DNA of 64,000 nucleotides. Source: a virus. The DNA lies in IMG/VR virus record IMGVR_UViG_3300030098_000945, positions 5,713 to 69,712 of that record; one strand, given 5' to 3'. The notes under the pieces are model-generated. The model worked only from the letters and a program-made list of their open reading frames with translations. It was not told the origin of the DNA and searched no databases. Position 1 is the first letter of the stretch, and each line of letters begins with the position of its first letter. Shown here in pieces: positions 16,096 to 57,489 of this stretch. A program made the position numbers and the translations under genes.

Positions 16096-16256
16096 AACCA
16101 GTTCAATATGTAATGAATATTGGACCATGTAGGTATTGCAAAAAGGAAATGGAAAATACTGAAAGTTTTGTAGCTTTTTTAGATAAAACTAAAGCTCATT
16201 ATCAATGTATGAAAGAAGATGATAACCAGAGAGCTTTGGATAAGACTTTTGAATAA
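16059..16256 (+). CDS. Small zinc-finger protein (CxxC...HxxC)
   Basis: CRYC and HYQC; conserved at 55135. Confidence 0.7.
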   Translation: MQMQKQKKKTWVKPVQYVMNIGPCRYCKKEMENTESFVAFLDKTKAHYQCMKEDDNQRALDKTFE

Positions 16257-16412
16257 TTAATTTAATTTTATTTTAGGGTCTTTTTTTAATAAAATAAAAG
16301 CAGTATTTCTTATTTGTAATGCTTTTAATTTAGATCTTTCTTCTACATCTTTTTTCATTCTTTGGTGTATTTCTCTTACTTGTTCAGCAGTATAAATTTT
16401 TTTTTTCTTCAT
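16257..16412 (-). CDS. 51-aa basic protein downstream of tRNA-Pro (unit A only)
   Basis: Translated by hand, MKKKKIYTAEQVREIHQRM...; TTGATC..TATATT upstream. Confidence 0.5.
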   Translation of the reverse strand: MKKKKIYTAEQVREIHQRMKKDVEERSKLKALQIRNTAFILLKKDPKIKLN

Positions 16413-16450
16413 AAATTAATAATAATATAAAAATTATAAAGATCAAATAG

Positions 16451-16527
16451 TGGTCTGGGTGGGAGGATTTGAACCTCCGATCCTCTGCTCCCAAAGCAGA
16501 TGCGATACCAGGCTTCGCTACACCCAG
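16451..16527 (-). tRNA. trnP: tRNA-Pro(TGG), complete with encoded CCA
   Basis: Acceptor CTGGGTG/CACCCAG-A-CCA, anticodon arm TCTGC-TT-TGG-GA-GCAGA, T arm GGAGG-TTCAAAT-CCTCC. Confidence 0.95.
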
Positions 16528-16539
16528 ACAATTTTAAAT

Positions 16540-16766
16540 TGGGGAGTATATGGGGAGTAAAAGATGGTATCAAATAGAAACTTCACTATTTTAAAAGGTT
16601 ATTTTATAGGTATATTTGTCAACTATTTTTTTACAATTTAAGAAAGAAACTGTTATATAACAATACAAATCGGAGATTTTAACGGTAGGTTCAAATGCTA
16701 TCGCTCCTCTAAAAAAAGTGTTGATAATTAATATTTTTTTTTAAGTGGGGAGTAAAGTGGGGAGTG
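16540..16766. other. attP of unit A: arm repeats TGGGGAGT x4 around core AGGTTCAAAT (16687)
   Basis: Downstream of the integrase operon; geometry identical to the unit B site. Confidence 0.75.
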
Positions 16767-16776
16767 AATTATTATA

Positions 16777-16799
16777 GGCGGGGAGTATGGATCCCCGCC
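16777..16799. terminator. GC-rich hairpin GGCGGGGA/TCCCCGCC
   Basis: Perfect 8-bp stem at the end of the leftward operon. Confidence 0.6.
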
Positions 16800-16819: not shown

Positions 16820-16987
16820 TTATTTACCTCCTTTAATATATTGTTTAGCTTCTTCTTTATTCACAAAGAATTTTTTAGTAAATAATTCAAGATTAAGAGT
16901 ATTAATTAATTTTTTTAATTTAATTTTTTTTGGTCTATTAGAACCATTTTTTACTACCCAAACATAAAGATCTTTTTTAATTGTCAT
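16820..16987 (-). CDS. 55-aa hypothetical protein (unit A only)
   Basis: Translated by hand, MTIKKDLYVWVVKNG... Confidence 0.5.
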   Translation of the reverse strand: MTIKKDLYVWVVKNGSNRPKKIKLKKLINTLNLELFTKKFFVNKEEAKQYIKGGK

Positions 16988-17029: not shown

Positions 17030-17461
17030 TTATCCTTTATATGTTGATTGATATGCAAGCTCCCGTTCTAACTTTGGGAGCATTGGTCTATATTTTGCTT
17101 GGAGTTTCCTTTCTTGTTCTATATTTTTATCTACTCTAGCAAAATTCTCTAATACTTTTTTGTGGTATTTCTTATCTATCTTTGCCAATACCTCTTCTGG
17201 ATTAGTATTAAACATTAAGTTAATGTCGTAACCTTCCTTTTTTAATAATAAAAACAAATCATGTGCTGGTATTCCGTTTTGACCCTTTTCTTGTTTTTGT
17301 ACTTGCTGAAAAGTTTTACCTTGTGCTTTAGCATGAACTGTTTGGTTTTTATGTTTTGGCAATCTTGATTGTGAACCATTGCCATTATCTATAACTTTAT
17401 CTAGGAACCTAAAGGCAAAGAGAAACTTTGCAATTCTTCCTTTATAGTGTAGTGCATCCAT
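17030..17461 (-). CDS. XRE-family HTH protein co-transcribed with integrase
   Basis: TFQQVQKQEKG motif of alphaproteobacterial XRE regulators; homologue at 55594. Confidence 0.7.
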   Translation of the reverse strand: MDALHYKGRIAKFLFAFRFLDKVIDNGNGSQSRLPKHKNQTVHAKAQGKTFQQVQKQEKGQNGIPAHDLFLLLKKEGYDINLMFNTNPEEVLAKIDKKYHKKVLENFARVDKNIEQERKLQAKYRPMLPKLERELAYQSTYKG

Positions 17462-17464
17462 ATT

Positions 17465-18631
17465 TTATCCTTTTATTAGATTGTTTATGGCAGCTAGTCT
17501 TTTTGTCTTATTCATATTAAGATCCTTTTGATAAAACTTTCCAAATGTTTTTAGATTGGTCCAGCCATATCTATCTTGGAATTGTTTATCAGTAAGAATT
17601 TTCATGTCTCTAACTAAAGAACTATTGAACGGTCTAAACACAGCAAATCCTTCTTGCCAATCAATACCCAGTTTTTTAGTAGATTGTTTAATTTTTTTAT
17701 AAGCTGTTCCTTTAGTAATATTAAATACTCTTTTTAATAAACCTTCTTTTTTAGGAAAAATCTGGTTCTGCATATGTAATTTTAATATATTTAAACAAAG
17801 ATCTGACACCTCAACGGATCTTCTGGAGCTGTCGGTCTTTAAAAAGTTTTCTCTAAAATTACTTTTTTTATCTAAAGAATGTCTAAAGTGAATTAATCCT
17901 TTATCAAAATCTACATCATTATAACAGATTGCAACAACTTCATTTGGTCTAGCACCTGTCTCAGCTGCCAATCTATAAAGAGCTTTCATTTTTATATCGT
18001 GTTCTTCATTACATAATCTAACAACATTTGCATATTGTGGGATCCAATAATCTTTTGGAACCTGTTGAAAGAAATTTTTGTGGAATTGAAAGTCTAAGAT
18101 ACTTTCGTCTATATGCCATTTATTTGCTTTGCAGTATTTTAAAAATAACTTAAATTCTGCAACAGCATATTTAATAGTTTTTTTACCAATGGTTTTATTT
18201 AATTGAATTAAAGTTCCTTTATTTCTATTAACCCATTTTTTACTGCTATTAACTCTTGGAAGGGTATACTTTAAAAAATCTGCTAAGATATACTCATTAA
18301 CCCAAACTTTGTTAATATACGGCTGGATATGGAGCTTTAACAGGCTAATTTTAACATGGTTACTCTCTTCCTGGTTAAGTTTATCGTTTTTTAAATACTT
18401 AAAATAATCTGAAAAAGCATTTTCAAATTTAACTCTTCCACCAGGTAAACTAATTTCTTCTGGTTTTAAACTATCTTTATATATATTAGCTTGTCTTTTT
18501 TGATTTGGTTGAAACTTAACTGTTTCTCCATTTTCTTTAACGGTAATTTTTTGTTTACCTTCATAACCAACAACCTTCCAATAAATAAGATGACCCTTGG
18601 AGTTATTAACTCTTTGAACTTGAAATTTCAA
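17465..18631 (-). CDS. int: Tyrosine integrase
   Basis: TGARPNE, LKT, AVFR, YGW, FY catalytic positions; adjacent att site. Confidence 0.9.
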   Translation of the reverse strand: MKFQVQRVNNSKGHLIYWKVVGYEGKQKITVKENGETVKFQPNQKRQANIYKDSLKPEEISLPGGRVKFENAFSDYFKYLKNDKLNQEESNHVKISLLKLHIQPYINKVWVNEYILADFLKYTLPRVNSSKKWVNRNKGTLIQLNKTIGKKTIKYAVAEFKLFLKYCKANKWHIDESILDFQFHKNFFQQVPKDYWIPQYANVVRLCNEEHDIKMKALYRLAAETGARPNEVVAICYNDVDFDKGLIHFRHSLDKKSNFRENFLKTDSSRRSVEVSDLCLNILKLHMQNQIFPKKEGLLKRVFNITKGTAYKKIKQSTKKLGIDWQEGFAVFRPFNSSLVRDMKILTDKQFQDRYGWTNLKTFGKFYQKDLNMNKTKRLAAINNLIKG

Positions 18632-23098: not shown

Positions 23099-23773
23099 TT
23101 AACACAAATCTGGGTTGTATTTAACTTTGACGGGTACGCAAATATCTATATCTTTTATATTAACTTTTACACAATCTTGATTTACTGGTTCTCTGGTTAA
23201 AGGATTAATAATAACCATTGAGCCATCCTCGTTAGCTCTTACAACACCCATAGTTTCATTGATTTTACCAGTTTTACTACTCCAAGATTTAGAGCAAGTA
23301 ACATAACATAGATTAGGAACAGAAAATTTTGAAAATTTATCTGCTTTTTTTATAGGCATATCAAATAAAAATATTTCTCTGTGTAAAAAATTACCTGGTA
23401 TATTTACTTGAATAGCTTTAACATTAGGTTTGTAAAACTCAAAAGGAATTGGAACCTCAAATATTTCTTCCTTTGGAAAAGTTTTTACTAAAAAATTATT
23501 ATCAATATATTTATCTAATATTATTTCTTGTCTAGGTTGGAATACTTCTACTGGATGAACATTTAAAACTTTAGCAATCTTAATAGCATTATCCCAAGTG
23601 ATCTCACGACTATTTTTCGACCACCGATTAATCGTAGTCTTGTCTCTTTTAAGTGCAGATCCTAACTGCGCTTGTGTCATTTGTTTAGAATCTAATAATT
23701 TTTTTAATTCTGCCATAGTATCTTGTTGATGCGTATTATTTATAATATGCAGCTCTGGTTTCTTTATTGTCAT
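23099..23773 (-). CDS. cI: CI-like repressor (HTH + degenerate S24-like domain)
   Basis: MTQAQLGSALKRDKTTINRW helix-turn-helix; divergent from the cro-like gene. Confidence 0.8.
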   Translation of the reverse strand: MTIKKPELHIINNTHQQDTMAELKKLLDSKQMTQAQLGSALKRDKTTINRWSKNSREITWDNAIKIAKVLNVHPVEVFQPRQEIILDKYIDNNFLVKTFPKEEIFEVPIPFEFYKPNVKAIQVNIPGNFLHREIFLFDMPIKKADKFSKFSVPNLCYVTCSKSWSSKTGKINETMGVVRANEDGSMVIINPLTREPVNQDCVKVNIKDIDICVPVKVKYNPDLC

Positions 23774-33471: not shown

Positions 33472-33495
33472 TCAATAGAATAGGAGAAAATCACA

Positions 33496-38477: not shown

Positions 38478-40670
38478 ATGGCAATAAAAATATATCAAAC
38501 ACAAATTAGACCAACAACTGAAGTTAAGGAAAGAGCATCAACTCCTGGTATGAAAATATCATTAGATACTGCTGCCGCTCCTGGCAGAGCTTTTGGTAAT
38601 ATGATGGCTGCTGGCGAAAAACTTTATGTAAAATACGAACAACAAAAATCTGAAAATGAAGTTATTGAAGCTGGTAAAAATATAGATGAAAATATTATTT
38701 CAGATCATCCAACTGGAGGATCTTCTTATTCTAAAAAAGGATTAGGTACTACTGTTAATGAATTGTCTGAAAGTACAAAACCTGATGAAGCATTAACATC
38801 ATATAAATTAGCTTGGCAAGCAGAATACGATAGAATTTTACCAACTCTTAAAGGTAAATTTTCTAAACAATTATTTAAAAATTATATGAATAAAAGATTT
38901 ATTAGTGAATCTGGTTCCATAAGAGATAAGACTTTTGTTAATTTTAGAAATGAATCAAGAGTTTTAAAAATAAATGAATTAGATAATATTACAAAAAGAT
39001 TATCAAATAATGAAAAAGGCACATTACCTCATAATCAAGCATTAATTGACTTTAATGCTTTTTTTTCATCACAAAGTAATTATGATTTATTTGGCGATAA
39101 ATTTAAACAATTAGAATTTCAAACTTTAAATAATATTGATGTTTTAAAAATTCAAGCTGATTTAAGTAAAGATGCTAAAGCAACTTTAAAAAAATTTAAT
39201 GCTGGAGAATATAAAAATTTAGATACAGAAAATCATACAAGGTTAAAAAATAAAATTACTTTAGCTGCACAACAACAAGCTTTAGGAGAAATAGGTAGTG
39301 ATGAAGAAAGAGCTAAATTAGGATTGGAAAGTAAAGTTGATTTATCAGAAAATTTAAAATTATTTGAGGGATATGAAACTTATAAAGATGTTAAATTAGC
39401 TGTTGATGTAAATAATTATGTTAGAGGAGCAGTATCACAAGTACATACCTCAAAACAATCTGATTTAGCACAAATTAAATTATACGAATTAAAGGGTACT
39501 GGAGACGAAATTGCAGCAAAAAGAAAAGCTAATGTAGTTATACAAAATGCTATTTCAGAAAGAATAAAAGCAGTTAAAGAAAATGATATAGTTGGTTATA
39601 TAAATAAGATTGATCCAGAATTAGCAGACTTAGATAATAGAATCCAAAATTCAAATGACGAAGAAACTATAAAATCTTTAATCAAAGAAAAAAAATTATT
39701 ATTAGATCAAAAATTTATTGAACTTGATATAGAAGAAAGCAAACAATTTTATTTAAGTAAATCAGAAGTTCAAGCAGCTGTCTTAACAATTACATCTCCA
39801 GACAAAATATGGCAAGAAAAGAAAGCAACCTTATTAAATTTTGGAGAATTGTATGGCAAGGAGAACTTACCTCAAATTATGAAACAAATGGCTGGAGAAA
39901 ACTTACCAGAGCATTTTGTTATAGCAATGAGTACCAATAGTTCTGCTTTAAACCAGGATATTTTACAATCTCATGACATTAAAGATTTAGAAAAAAATGC
40001 TTTAAATGAAACATCTGCATCAAAAAAAGATATTACAAAAAGAATAGCAAACAATCTTGAAAAATGGGAAGAGGTTATTGAAAATCAAAATTTAGGAACT
40101 GAGGATGCTATTAAATATAAAGCAATGGTAGAAAAAACTTTATATAGAGTAGCTCTTTTAAGAATAGATAATGATAAAAATAATGATTGGAATAAAGCAG
40201 TTGATAGTGCAACAGATCAATTTTTAAGTGATTATTCAATAGCTCCAGAAAAAACTTATTTTATTCCCCAAGATGTAAATGGAAAATTTGTTAATCAAGG
40301 AATTGTTCAAACAAAATCTGAAGCAATTAAATTAGATGTTGAAGAAGGAAGTTATTTAGATAATTTTATGGGAAAAGATGGTTATCAACATTATGCAAGT
40401 AATAGCGATATTGATGGAGTATCAAAAGAAGATATAGATATTAGAGTTAAAAGTGCAATTCAAAATAATAATATGTGGTTATTAAATGATACTTCTACTG
40501 GTTTAGTTTTACATTTTACTTGGTTTGATGGAACTAAAGTTCCAGTAGTAAATAGCTCTGGACAAAAAATTGAATTTAATTTTTTAGATACAGATTACAA
40601 TGCACCAGGTACAAAAACTCCTTTAACTGTCATTGAAACTTACGATGTATTTGAGGAGCCAAGCGCATAA
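38478..40670 (+). CDS. Internal virion (ejection) protein
   Basis: SD GGAG then MAIKIY; position in the module. Confidence 0.7.
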   Translation: MAIKIYQTQIRPTTEVKERASTPGMKISLDTAAAPGRAFGNMMAAGEKLYVKYEQQKSENEVIEAGKNIDENIISDHPTGGSSYSKKGLGTTVNELSESTKPDEALTSYKLAWQAEYDRILPTLKGKFSKQLFKNYMNKRFISESGSIRDKTFVNFRNESRVLKINELDNITKRLSNNEKGTLPHNQALIDFNAFFSSQSNYDLFGDKFKQLEFQTLNNIDVLKIQADLSKDAKATLKKFNAGEYKNLDTENHTRLKNKITLAAQQQALGEIGSDEERAKLGLESKVDLSENLKLFEGYETYKDVKLAVDVNNYVRGAVSQVHTSKQSDLAQIKLYELKGTGDEIAAKRKANVVIQNAISERIKAVKENDIVGYINKIDPELADLDNRIQNSNDEETIKSLIKEKKLLLDQKFIELDIEESKQFYLSKSEVQAAVLTITSPDKIWQEKKATLLNFGELYGKENLPQIMKQMAGENLPEHFVIAMSTNSSALNQDILQSHDIKDLEKNALNETSASKKDITKRIANNLEKWEEVIENQNLGTEDAIKYKAMVEKTLYRVALLRIDNDKNNDWNKAVDSATDQFLSDYSIAPEKTYFIPQDVNGKFVNQGIVQTKSEAIKLDVEEGSYLDNFMGKDGYQHYASNSDIDGVSKEDIDIRVKSAIQNNNMWLLNDTSTGLVLHFTWFDGTKVPVVNSSGQKIEFNFLDTDYNAPGTKTPLTVIETYDVFEEPSA

Positions 40671-55322: not shown

Positions 55323-55546
55323 AGAGTTTTATTAGAGTGTATGATGGGTCAACTAGACACCACCCAATAAAATAAGGGTTATTTTATACGCATAATTGTC
55401 AACTAAAATTATACAATTTAAGAAAGAAAATGTTATATAACAATAACAATTTAACGAAATGGCGTTAGGTTCAAATCCTGCCGCCCCGACCATTTAAGCG
55501 TTGGTAATCAACACTTATTTTTTTTCTTAGAGTGAAACTGAGAGTG
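55323..55546. other. attP of unit B: AGAGT arm repeats around a tRNA-Pro 3'-end core (55467-55492)
   Basis: AGGTTCAAATCCTGCCGCCCCGACCA is a T arm + acceptor strand + CCA, with no 5' tRNA half. Confidence 0.85.
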
Positions 55547-55556
55547 AATTATTAAA

Positions 55557-55588
55557 GAGGGGAATTAATTTTCCCCTCCTTTTTTTTT
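55557..55588 (+). terminator. Intrinsic terminator GAGGGGAA/TTCCCCTC + T-tract
   Basis: Downstream of the tRNA 3' fragment; would end the reconstituted host tRNA transcript. Confidence 0.75.
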
Positions 55589-56033: not shown

Positions 56034-57179
56034 TTATCCTCTTATTAGATTGTTAATGGCAGCTTTTCTTTTTGGTCTATTCATATCCAAATCCCTCTGA
56101 TACCATCTTCCAAAAGTATTTAAGTTTAACCAGCCATACCTATCCATAAATTGTTTGTCGGTTAGGAATTGCTGATCTCTTACTAGAGAGGAGTTGAATT
56201 TTCTAAATACAGAGAAACCACCTTGCCATTTAATGCCAAGTCTTTTAGTTACCCTGGTTAATCTTTTATAAACTCTGTCTTTGGTTAAATTATTAAATAC
56301 TCTTCTGTGTTGTTTTGTTTTAGTTATGAATCTTGATTTTAAATAAATCTTAAATAGGTTTAATAATTCATCTGATATTTCTACTCTTCTTCTTGATGTT
56401 CTTGTCTTTAAAAAGTTAGCTCTAAAGTTAGACCAACGATCCAATGAGTGTCTAAAGAATACAGTACCCTCATTATAATCAATGTCATCTTCACAAATGG
56501 CTACTGCTTCATTGGTTCTACAACCCGTTTCAGCACCCAATCTATATAAACATTTATCCCTTAAATTTTTTTCGCTTTCTATAAGTTTAACCACATCGGC
56601 ATAAGAGGGTAGAATAATATCTTTAGGTGTATCGCCAAATGTATTTTTATTAAATTCAAAATCTAATATATCTAAGTCAACTTTCCATTTATGTTTCTTG
56701 CAAAACTTTAAAAACTTCTTAAATTCGCCAACGCATTCCTTAACTACCTTTTTACCTATAGTTTCAGTAGATCTACCACCCTCGCTATCAAATATGTATT
56801 TCTTGGAGCGTAGGAGCTTTTTAAGGGTATATCCCTCAAAATCTGATGCGAGGTACTGGTGTAGGTACGTTTTATTAATATACGGCTGGATATGGTGCTT
56901 AATATAGCCAACTTGTACTCTATTATACTCTTCCGTATTTAATTCATTGCTTAATACAGATTTAACATAAAGATCAAAAGCATCATCAAATTTAATCTTA
57001 TCATCTGGACCCACTATATCTTCTGGGTTTAAACTTTTAATATAAACTTTAGCTTGTCTCTTTTGGTTTAGTTCAAACTTAATGGTTTTACCTTTATGTC
57101 TTACAAAAAACTTTTTACCCGTATCGGTAATGGCTTGTATATTATAATGATTATTAATTTTAACTAACCAAAATTTCAT
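56034..57179 (-). CDS. int: Tyrosine integrase
   Basis: TGCRTNE, LKT, SVFR, YGW, WY; start reassigned to MKFWLV. Confidence 0.9.
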   Translation of the reverse strand: MKFWLVKINNHYNIQAITDTGKKFFVRHKGKTIKFELNQKRQAKVYIKSLNPEDIVGPDDKIKFDDAFDLYVKSVLSNELNTEEYNRVQVGYIKHHIQPYINKTYLHQYLASDFEGYTLKKLLRSKKYIFDSEGGRSTETIGKKVVKECVGEFKKFLKFCKKHKWKVDLDILDFEFNKNTFGDTPKDIILPSYADVVKLIESEKNLRDKCLYRLGAETGCRTNEAVAICEDDIDYNEGTVFFRHSLDRWSNFRANFLKTRTSRRRVEISDELLNLFKIYLKSRFITKTKQHRRVFNNLTKDRVYKRLTRVTKRLGIKWQGGFSVFRKFNSSLVRDQQFLTDKQFMDRYGWLNLNTFGRWYQRDLDMNRPKRKAAINNLIRG

Positions 57180-57180
57180 T

Positions 57181-57489
57181 TTAAGTATAGGAACTAAAAT
57201 CATCTACTGAATAAAAATATTTGTTAATATCTTTATATTTTATTTTACAAAGTTGAGACCAATATTGGATTGCTTCAGCTCTACCCCATTCTCCAATTTT
57301 ATTCCATTTACCACAATTTTTAGGTGGAACACGATCTCCGAAACAATAAATATCCATAGTAATTCTAAAAAATTCAAGTACGTTTTTTACATAAAGTTTA
57401 AAAGAATCTTTACCTTTATATTTATGTTTATAGAAAGCAAACATAGCTTTCATATCTTTATCTTTCTTCATTGCTTCTAGTTTTTTCAT
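57181..57489 (-). CDS. Hypothetical early protein
   Basis: ORF track; no counterpart in unit A. Confidence 0.55.
   Translation of the reverse strand: MKKLEAMKKDKDMKAMFAFYKHKYKGKDSFKLYVKNVLEFFRITMDIYCFGDRVPPKNCGKWNKIGEWGRAEAIQYWSQLCKIKYKDINKYFYSVDDFSSYT

Follow-up and report, generated by a model that had tools for sequence, protein, structure and literature searches.

How can a temperate phage integrate into a tRNA gene when its own attachment site lacks the sequence that would rebuild that gene? The question is raised by a 64,000-nucleotide stretch of viral DNA (the window; bases 5713–69712 of the 69,712-bp virus contig IMGVR_UViG_3300030098_000945). It holds a full phage genome, which we named phage A, followed by a second, incomplete unit of 30.5 kb, phage B. 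Phage A carries a tRNA-Pro(TGG) gene beside a phage attachment site (attP) with a degenerate core, and phage B carries an attP that ends like a complete tRNA. An earlier reading made from the letters alone (the sequence-only reading) had proposed that both phages integrate at the tRNA-Pro gene of their host, with B repairing the gene and A replacing it. Having compared the two sites, the family of their integrases and the chromosomes of SAR11 bacteria, we consider A probably to be an HTVC010P-type temperate pelagiphage that uses tRNA-dependent lysogeny at SAR11 tRNA-Pro(TGG). For the integrase family as a whole, we hold the same mechanism with greater confidence.

Attachment sites of phages A and B

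The complete tRNA-Pro(TGG) gene that had been noticed in phage A lies at 16451–16527 on the minus strand. It is 77 nt long with CCA encoded, scores 66.7 bits against Rfam RF00005 (gathering score 29), and is the sole tRNA that ARAGORN called in the 64-kb window; 66 of its 77 bases are identical to SAR11 tRNA-Pro. Its 5′ end (16527) is 160 bp from the start of the attP core (16687), on the P side, and the gene lies outside the P arm in the orientation opposite to the core. The common core, AGGTTCAAAT (16687–16696, plus strand), equals the last three T-stem bases and the T-loop of the host tRNA-Pro. It occurs three times in the window against 0.34 expected: in both attP cores and in the T-arm of A's tRNA. 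The core of A continues into a non-tRNA tail, GCTATCGCTCCTCT (16697–16712, plus strand), which matches the host tail in 8 of 16 bases and occupies the place where B has the T-stem 3′ strand, the acceptor 3′ strand, A73 and CCA. The decayed continuation described in the sequence-only reading was therefore recovered by direct comparison.

Candidate arm-type integrase sites flank this core. The P arm has two direct copies of GGGGAGTA (16541–16559, plus strand) and the P′ arm three direct copies of GGGGAGT(A/G) (16747–16787, plus strand), the last of them in a hairpin at 16777–16799. The motif GGGGAGTR is found nine times in the whole window against 0.89 expected, and five of the nine lie at 16541–16787, two to the left and three to the right of the core. 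The layout resembles that of lambda: direct repeats stand to either side of the core, within about 250 bp, and an imperfect inverted repeat surrounds a 7-base segment. Unlike in lambda, the overlap in A is placed from a switch seen in chromosomal attR junctions (below), and the arm and core sites are candidates read from the sequence. The ten-base core also lies inside A's tRNA (16467–16476, minus strand), inverted relative to the attP core and about 210 bp from it. In principle, the integrase could act on such inverted copies and flip the P arm; the contigs of four sequencing runs (X10, X11, X18 and X19) showed no inverted form.

In phage B, the attP core (55467–55492, plus strand) is an exact copy of the 3′ end of SAR11 tRNA-Pro(TGG), identical over 26 bases from the end of the T-stem through CCA, and in most host loci the identity runs two bases further. 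The 26 bases were identical in 17 of 17 loci titled Pelagibacter or Pelagibacteraceae among the 80 genome-scan matches listed, of at least 120, which bears out the perfect tRNA-Pro end first ascribed to B; the same 22-mer also occurs in many unrelated phyla and does not by itself name a host. Directly after CCA stands a hairpin with a run of eight U (55496–55525, plus strand; −6 kcal/mol, z −3.75), a candidate terminator for the rebuilt tRNA. This part of the earlier description is supported by the fold and its position, but a simple terminator scan flagged a stronger hairpin at 55557–55578 and not this one. Arm-type repeat candidates of the form (T/G)AGAGTG(A/T) lie between 55333 and 55547 on the plus strand, one in the P arm (55333–55340) and two in the P′ arm (55528–55535 and 55540–55547); three of the five matches in the window cluster at attP, and the total count is not above chance. 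As had been stated, B has no tRNA gene: ARAGORN called none in the 30.5 kb of this incomplete genome within the contig, nor in any B-like locus.

Locus L148, the nearest relative of A with the other state of the tail, connects the two kinds of site. Over the 114 bp up to and including the core, its P-side flank is 88% identical to that of A, and it has an intact tRNA-Pro tail (16 of 16 bases) and no tRNA gene in its 11 kb. Because the flank of A is homologous to that of L148, whose tail is an exact tRNA-Pro end, the site of A is by its sequence homologous to a tRNA-Pro attP, and what appears to have changed is specifically the tail that encodes the tRNA end.

Predicted outcome of integration

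We infer that A integrates at tRNA-Pro, that the hybrid gene formed there is inactive, and that the phage tRNA is not only expressed and charged but also required. In this mechanism the integrase of A would recombine attP with the host tRNA gene inside the roughly 10-bp core AGGTTCAAAT, at the T-stem end and T-loop. Since the incoming tail is not tRNA sequence, the hybrid at the left junction (attL) would lose the closing pair of the T-stem, the 1:72 pair, the A73 discriminator and CCA, and would not be a working tRNA. The host has a single tRNA-Pro gene (below), so a lysogen would survive only because the phage brings tRNA-Pro(TGG). That gene, 160 bp from the core on the P side, would remain linked after integration to its own promoter-like site (TTGATA, a 17-nt spacer and TATACT; 16545–16573, minus strand; 10 of 12 matches), which ends 17 nt before the tRNA 5′ end. 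B and L148, in contrast, would rebuild the host gene from an attP with the exact tRNA 3′ end, and carry no tRNA gene. The sequence-only reading had gone on to call the prophage essential, which is too strong: precise excision by the integrase would restore the host gene, and only the phage tRNA would be essential, while the phage is integrated.

To obtain the hybrids, we spliced each phage tail in silico onto the host tRNA after its T-loop. In the hybrid of A, six of seven acceptor pairs (one of them G-U) and three of five in the T-stem remain. G53:C61 and the 1:72 pair are gone, position 73 is C and CCA is missing, and the cloverleaf energy is −18.0 kcal/mol against −33.2 kcal/mol for the host tRNA. 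G72 and A73 are presumably identity elements for the bacterial prolyl-tRNA synthetase. Across the family, ARAGORN called no tRNA in the simulated attL of 22 of 27 classes of degenerate tail, and A73 or CCA was kept in 0 of 27; judged by these simulations, the hybrid would clearly not be a tRNA for most of the integrase family.

tRNA carriage and core state across the integrase family

We scanned an alignment of 32 integrase homologues, with 35 invariant columns, against IMG/VR and JGI metagenomes and obtained 105 loci, 103 with an integrase. For each locus we scored tRNA genes downstream of the integrase gene (int) and the 16 bases that follow the AGGTTC(A/G)AAT core. One hundred integrases were long enough for a tree and 82 loci could be scored for both traits; left out were 18 rows in which the contig ended before the tRNA position or the core, and five integrases of fewer than 330 amino acids. 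The core of L161–163 was read by eye. L215, in which the attP module is replaced by one with the 3′ half of another tRNA, was scored as intact without tRNA.

A tRNA-Pro(TGG) gene lay about 160 bp beyond a degenerate core at 53 of the 82 loci, and an intact tail without a tRNA was found at 28. A single locus, L203, combined a degenerate core with no tRNA, and none combined a tRNA with an intact tail. Five independent contrasts could be drawn on the integrase tree, of which four were concordant, none opposite and one a tie (sign test, p 0.125). The expectation that tRNA carriage would track a degenerate core among relatives thus agreed with 53 plus 28 of the 82 loci. The ten-base core is kept in every lineage while the tails differ. 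The tie is formed by L203 (about 2380) and L205 (2993–3069): compared with L205, L203 has precisely lost the tRNA-Pro gene and kept the degenerate core. L203 parallels the actinophage Daredevil and, by analogy, would be predicted to be a natural, obligately lytic variant.

The phage tRNAs themselves look intact. We collected 55 phage tRNA genes, which reduce to 30 distinct sequences. Aligned, 26 of these have compensatory double changes at 15 of 25 stem pairs and two broken cells, and C1:G72, G53:C61, A73, CCA and the anticodon loop are invariant; this pattern indicates that the phage tRNAs are under selection as tRNAs. The tRNA of A is identical over 77 of 77 bases to those of L140, L145, L195 and L220, whose integrases are only 41–48% identical to that of A, and the flanking P arm lowers the identity to about 76% over the whole segment from core to tRNA. 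This hints that the tRNA-Pro cassette moves between lineages, although strong selection could also explain the identity.

In the unrooted tree, the sister group of the A clade is formed by L148, L149 and L150, and the B clade is sister to the two combined; tRNAs are carried by the clade that branches next and by most of the tree's other half. Parsimony does not discriminate between a single gain in A and two losses. That A turned recently from repairing to replacing is favoured by the residual tRNA likeness of its tail (8 of 16 bases, 6 of 7 acceptor pairs) and by a tRNA identical to those of distant lineages. The sequence-only reading had taken B for the ancestral state. That is plausible for the A and B pair and does not extend to the family, which cannot be rooted and in which tRNA-carrying replacement is the commoner state.

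Two further features of the family's attP modules were apparent. Most degenerate tails start with ACTA(T/C)(C/G)GA and, together with the left flank, make up a near-perfect inverted repeat centred on the T-loop bases (for example at about 5310–5345 of L141); the freed half-site seems to have a conserved form of its own, possibly as a core-type integrase site. In L215 (2100–3170), int is 95.6% identical in DNA to that of L206 and the whole attP and tRNA-Pro module has been swapped. The replacement of about 1 kb holds an open reading frame (ORF) of 217 amino acids together with a 3′ half that belongs to a different tRNA and is flanked by repeats of its own, and looks like the same integrase with another attP.

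The host gene and chromosomal junctions

The host tRNA-Pro gene is single. In G002, the 1.2-Mb genome that contains locus L074, 32 Rfam tRNA hits typed with ARAGORN included one tRNA-Pro, with anticodon TGG. G144, a single contig of 1,395,018 bp, gave 33 Rfam hits and 32 ARAGORN tRNAs, again with a single tRNA-Pro(TGG). The earlier reading had made its argument depend on a host with only one such gene, and both genomes are of this kind. In them the tRNA that would be disrupted has no redundant gene, and its single copy suggests that it is essential. The tRNA of A and the proposed target are of the same isotype, both tRNA-Pro(TGG). As the phage anticodon is that of the host's only tRNA-Pro, the phage tRNA adds no decoding capacity, which argues against a role in codon supply.

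Chromosomes also show where this attP family recombines. The intact tail of another clade without tRNA genes (P0008-like) matched 82 of 401 sampled Pelagibacteraceae genomes, the unpublished G224 among them, with at most one mismatch, and the four matches that we checked were all tRNA-Pro(TGG). In three SAR11 chromosomes, G282 (L256; G282:C2:140500-146500), G384 (L257; G384:C29) and G396 (L258; G396:C1), the tRNA-Pro gene is followed by an insert of 1.2–2.6 kb and a second copy of the tRNA 3′ end. The P arms of A, L148, B and L140 align over the full length of the roughly 185 bp before this second copy, with a mean column identity of 71%; for L140 by itself the identity is 73% over 178 bp (E 6.5e-18). 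All three chromosomes switch from phage-type to host-type sequence at the first T-loop bases. In G396, the rebuilt tRNA reads TTCAAAT where the displaced copy has TTCGAAT, a difference that maps the exchange to the loop's 5′ edge.

Judged by their sequences, these three sites are right (attR) junctions of small, integrated, repairing-type remnants. They show that the attP family recombines at SAR11 tRNA-Pro and at which point; they record no event of the replacing type. For A itself, the putative bacterial attachment site (attB) in the host tRNA is assigned from the ten-base match and P-arm homology, alongside these family junctions at tRNA-Pro. The integrase profile, run on the sampled genomes, found no integrase of the family in the three inserts. 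The G282 insert contains an ORF of 220 amino acids and a helicase-like ORF of 531 amino acids, neither of which had a tblastn match to the contig or to the family loci. The inserts may be remnants or small integrative elements.

Counter-evidence and alternative explanations

Several observations weigh against the proposal that A replaces the tRNA gene it disrupts. The earlier suggestion to look for its junctions led to none across the contigs of the four runs, and neither A nor any relative with a tRNA gene was represented by an attL or attR in the viral scan, the 103 loci or two samples of 401 SAR11 genomes. All matches to a 24-mer of A and all integrase loci are in attP form, and the viral scan with this 24-mer, which is able to match attL, returned one attP-form contig. 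The run data were Logan contigs, not raw reads; those of X10, X11, X18 and X19 cross the core of A with no loose end at 16687–16712, a result of little weight because contigs drop rare forms. The integrase profile found nothing in 401 Pelagibacteraceae genomes or in a further 401 genomes of a genus sample, bar one weak hit (59.8 bits in G246) with no tRNA beside it. All three chromosomal junctions are of the repairing type. The 10-bp core is common to many tRNAs, and the attB of A is assigned from attP homology and the isotype of the carried tRNA. ARAGORN calls a 74-base tRNA-Pro on the simulated attL of A and a tRNA for four other degenerate classes (5 of 27 in all). The promoter-like site before the tRNA is not above chance: the region has three such sites against 5.3 expected, and 10–15 of 200 shuffles of A-type upstream sequences score as well for the promoter consensus. 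L203 has a degenerate core and no tRNA. The independent evidence is also thin, because many of the 82 rows are near-copies, some of them the same contig fetched twice, and the fair count is the five contrasts, a number with which p 0.05 cannot be reached. The claim that B repairs and A replaces tRNA-Pro consequently has the comparative test and the single host gene on its side, and the missing A-type junctions and the ARAGORN call on the hybrid against it.

That call speaks for a different outcome, in which A integrates at tRNA-Pro, the attL hybrid works well enough, and the phage tRNA is an accessory that offers extra dosage or insurance. The stem pairs that the hybrid retains would fit this, as would the 8 of 16 host bases in the tail of A, more than most relatives keep. 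We nevertheless think it unlikely, since the lost G53:C61, C1:G72, A73 and CCA are invariant in 17 of 17 host tRNAs (among the matches listed) and 26 of 26 phage tRNAs, the predicted cloverleaf is far weaker than that of the host, and the 22 of 27 degenerate classes that give no hybrid tRNA carry the same cassette. On the point that the sequence-only reading had named as a refutation, a functional tRNA in attL, the ten-base core of A therefore gives a divided answer, with four invariant features lost and a tRNA still called. Failure to find an integrated form in any search could instead mean that the attP of A is a decaying relic, with integration lost or rare, and that the tRNA serves lytic growth, for example through translation supply or in place of a host tRNA attacked by a defence system; other roles for phage tRNAs have been proposed, as passages of PMC10865867 relate. 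A relic is distinctly improbable, however, given that the ten-base core is kept in every lineage, arm repeats stand on both sides of it and the integrase is intact. Moreover, the tRNA is always beside attP, is of the isotype of attB with the anticodon of the host's only tRNA-Pro, and goes with the state of the tail, a correlation not expected from a lytic role.

The two remaining alternatives concern what recombines with what. A host site other than tRNA-Pro could be the target of A's core, and the sequence-only reading had allowed that an intact match elsewhere would count against it. One candidate emerged, a 22-base site in G045 with two mismatches to the core and tail of A (L251 1501–1522; G045:C2:64749–64770), between glycosyltransferase-like genes. 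We rejected it as an alternative attB: a single genome of the 401 has it, neither ARAGORN nor Rfam recognizes a tRNA there, and both arm homology and arm repeats are lacking; it could be chance, a relic or a secondary site. Since one of its mismatches falls in the T-loop segment, about 0.1 such hits are expected by chance (our estimate, under a uniform base model) and the P arm of A is homologous to attPs with exact tRNA-Pro tails, we regard another target as very improbable. It is scarcely plausible, finally, that the complete phage tRNA gene, and not the degenerate core, recombines with the host tRNA-Pro by homology. The two genes do have 66 of 77 bases in common, including AGGTTCAAAT, but the arm-type repeats flank the degenerate core and not the tRNA, the tRNA lies outside the P arm in the opposite orientation, and the switch in the chromosomal attR junctions falls at the core aligned with the degenerate core of A.

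A wider picture can also be drawn, which we offer tentatively and would not yet rely on. Replacement would be the majority, and possibly the older, way of SAR11 lysogeny in this integrase family. The right half of the core would have settled on a conserved sequence of its own that forms a near-perfect inverted repeat with the left half, the cassette would be mobile, and lineages would have switched repeatedly between repair and replacement. In a host with one tRNA-Pro gene, the tRNA would act as an addiction element: losing the prophage in any way but precise excision would be lethal, which could stabilize lysogeny in streamlined genomes. Host assignment by long matches of attP to attB would be blind to such phages.

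Relation to known systems

tRNA-dependent lysogeny was defined genetically in actinobacteriophages, which have cores of 8–17 bp that do not rebuild the tRNA, require the cognate phage tRNA for stable lysogeny, with clear plaques in its absence, and have paired relatives that rebuild the gene (Guerrero-Bustamante and Hatfull 2024, PMC10865867, in the sections on these phages). The cases given there include Fionnbharth (K4), Cluster L, Cain (K6), Gaia (X), BrutonGaster and Mollymur. As these sections describe them, the actinophages resemble A in their tyrosine integrase, an attB in a host tRNA gene (in A a predicted one), a short core and a phage tRNA of matching isotype near int and attP. Cain with Ximenita and Gaia with Omega, pairs that include long-core relatives without a tRNA, correspond to A with L148 and B, and Daredevil, a natural variant without the tRNA, corresponds to L203. 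A differs in its SAR11 (Alphaproteobacteria) host with a single tRNA-Pro, its HTVC010P-type podovirus genome and its tRNA-Pro(TGG) target, and is known by comparison only, whereas the actinophages are known by genetics.

The sequence-only reading had extended the strategy to a marine phage of Alphaproteobacteria. For SAR11 phages it is not new: in the passages of Zhao et al. (bioRxiv 10.1101/410191) on two SAR11 phages, HTVC019P splits the host tRNA-Cys and HTVC025P the tRNA-Leu, integration is verified, and the phage tRNA 'is likely used instead'. These phages are like A in splitting a host tRNA and carrying a tRNA of that isotype. According to the same passages, they are unlike A in belonging to the T7-like (HTVC019P-type) group with other integrases and other tRNAs, and in HTVC019P the core lies mid-tRNA and the phage tRNA far from attP; a family-wide association is absent from those passages. 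A paper on S. meliloti prophages remarks, in one passage, that the mechanism had been described by the same authors for prophages resembling a Mesorhizobium phage. The strategy is thus already known from the actinophages, HTVC019P and HTVC025P, and A is a further member. Our literature search, within main texts, found no paper describing tRNA-Pro-carrying pelagiphages; the one paper to mention both pelagiphages and tRNA-Pro was a cyanophage preprint.

For temperate HTVC010P-type phages, the main text of Du et al. 2021 (PMC8477408) reports cores of 14–43 bp in eight SAR11 tRNAs and no tRNA in the isolates; subgroup II includes HTVC028P (tRNA-Asn) and the prophage PNP1 (tRNA-Met). A and B are like subgroup II, as portrayed there, in a capsid protein 62–66% identical, early and late genes on opposite strands, a module of integrase and regulator, and an attP downstream of int. 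B resembles HTVC028P in rebuilding its tRNA. A is unlike the isolates in that main text in carrying a tRNA, and 'tRNA-Pro' does not appear there.

What A and its relatives add is the size and cleanness of the comparative pattern and a single-copy host gene. SAR11 are among the most abundant bacteria of the ocean, and the frequency and stability of lysogeny by their phages are debated. Should our reading hold, an entire group of HTVC010P-type temperate pelagiphages would, while integrated, leave the host dependent on a phage's copy of the one proline tRNA that it has. The usual assignment of attP and host by exact tRNA matches of 14–43 bp, as set out in the main text of Du et al. (PMC8477408), would miss or under-call cores of 10–13 bp, and a tRNA gene adjoining attP would then be the better predictor of attB. 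A against L148 and B, and L203 against L205, provide pairs for natural experiments.

Two related phages on one contig

Comparison of the contig with itself revealed two phage genomes, related yet distinct, that follow one another head to tail at a period of about 39.2 kb. Contig bases 1–754 match 39196–39950 at 92.5% and other blocks match at 67–89%, and B is 67–92% identical to A, with the join near position 33484 of the window (contig 39196). A and B each have a complete attP with the same kind of arm repeat on either side, so the join is not a tandem integration through the attachment sites. It looks like an assembly that passed between co-occurring strains in a conserved stretch, a chimera rather than a tandem prophage.

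The G+C content is about 29–35% across most of the window. Podovirus structural genes are present in both genomes, as are a tyrosine integrase and a candidate repressor of the CI type. Over 100% of its length, the major capsid protein shares 62–66% identity with those of the cultured HTVC010P-type pelagiphages HTVC203P, HTVC010P and HTVC028P, and window proteins have portal, tail and terminase matches in PHROG. We placed the phages in the HTVC010P-type group by capsid homology and synteny, from the capsid and PHROG matches. A lysogeny module of integrase and regulator with a tRNA-derived attP near int is in keeping with the temperate subgroup. Searched by DNA, close cultured relatives came down to tRNA matches to T4-like phages and short pelagiphage patches, and were set aside.

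The integrase of A (17465–18631, minus strand) matches the tyrosine integrase family PF00589 above the Pfam cutoff (E 8.9e-08), as does that of B (56034–57203, minus strand; E 1.3e-09). The two are 53% identical, and that of A is 69% identical to the integrase of L148. It is intact, 99% identical in the independent contigs L121, L122 and L147, and 98% identical in the partial L159. Directly downstream lies an ORF of 143 amino acids (17030–17461, minus strand) that reached no family at threshold, followed by one of 55 amino acids between the integrase operon and attP (16820–16987, minus strand) that had no Pfam match. Neither of these ORFs between int and attP had a PHROG match at threshold. 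From its position the 55-residue product might be guessed to be an excisionase, and a similar ORF of 53 amino acids follows int in L215. A CI/Cro-type helix-turn-helix repressor candidate of A is encoded at 23099–23773 on the minus strand (Pfam HTH_3, 30.7 bits against a cutoff of 23), with matches to PHROG families of transcriptional repressors.

Two small features adjoin the tRNA gene. Upstream of the phage tRNAs, at about 45 nt, stands a recurrent TTGAYA-like hexamer; we discarded it as a promoter because consensus scores were not above those of shuffles in most lineages, and it is a hint only. On the other side, an insert of 194 bp (16252–16445) with an ORF of 51 amino acids (16257–16412, minus strand) separates the last late gene of A from its tRNA. 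It is absent from L121, and contigs of the runs X11 and X19 jump from 16251 to 16446.

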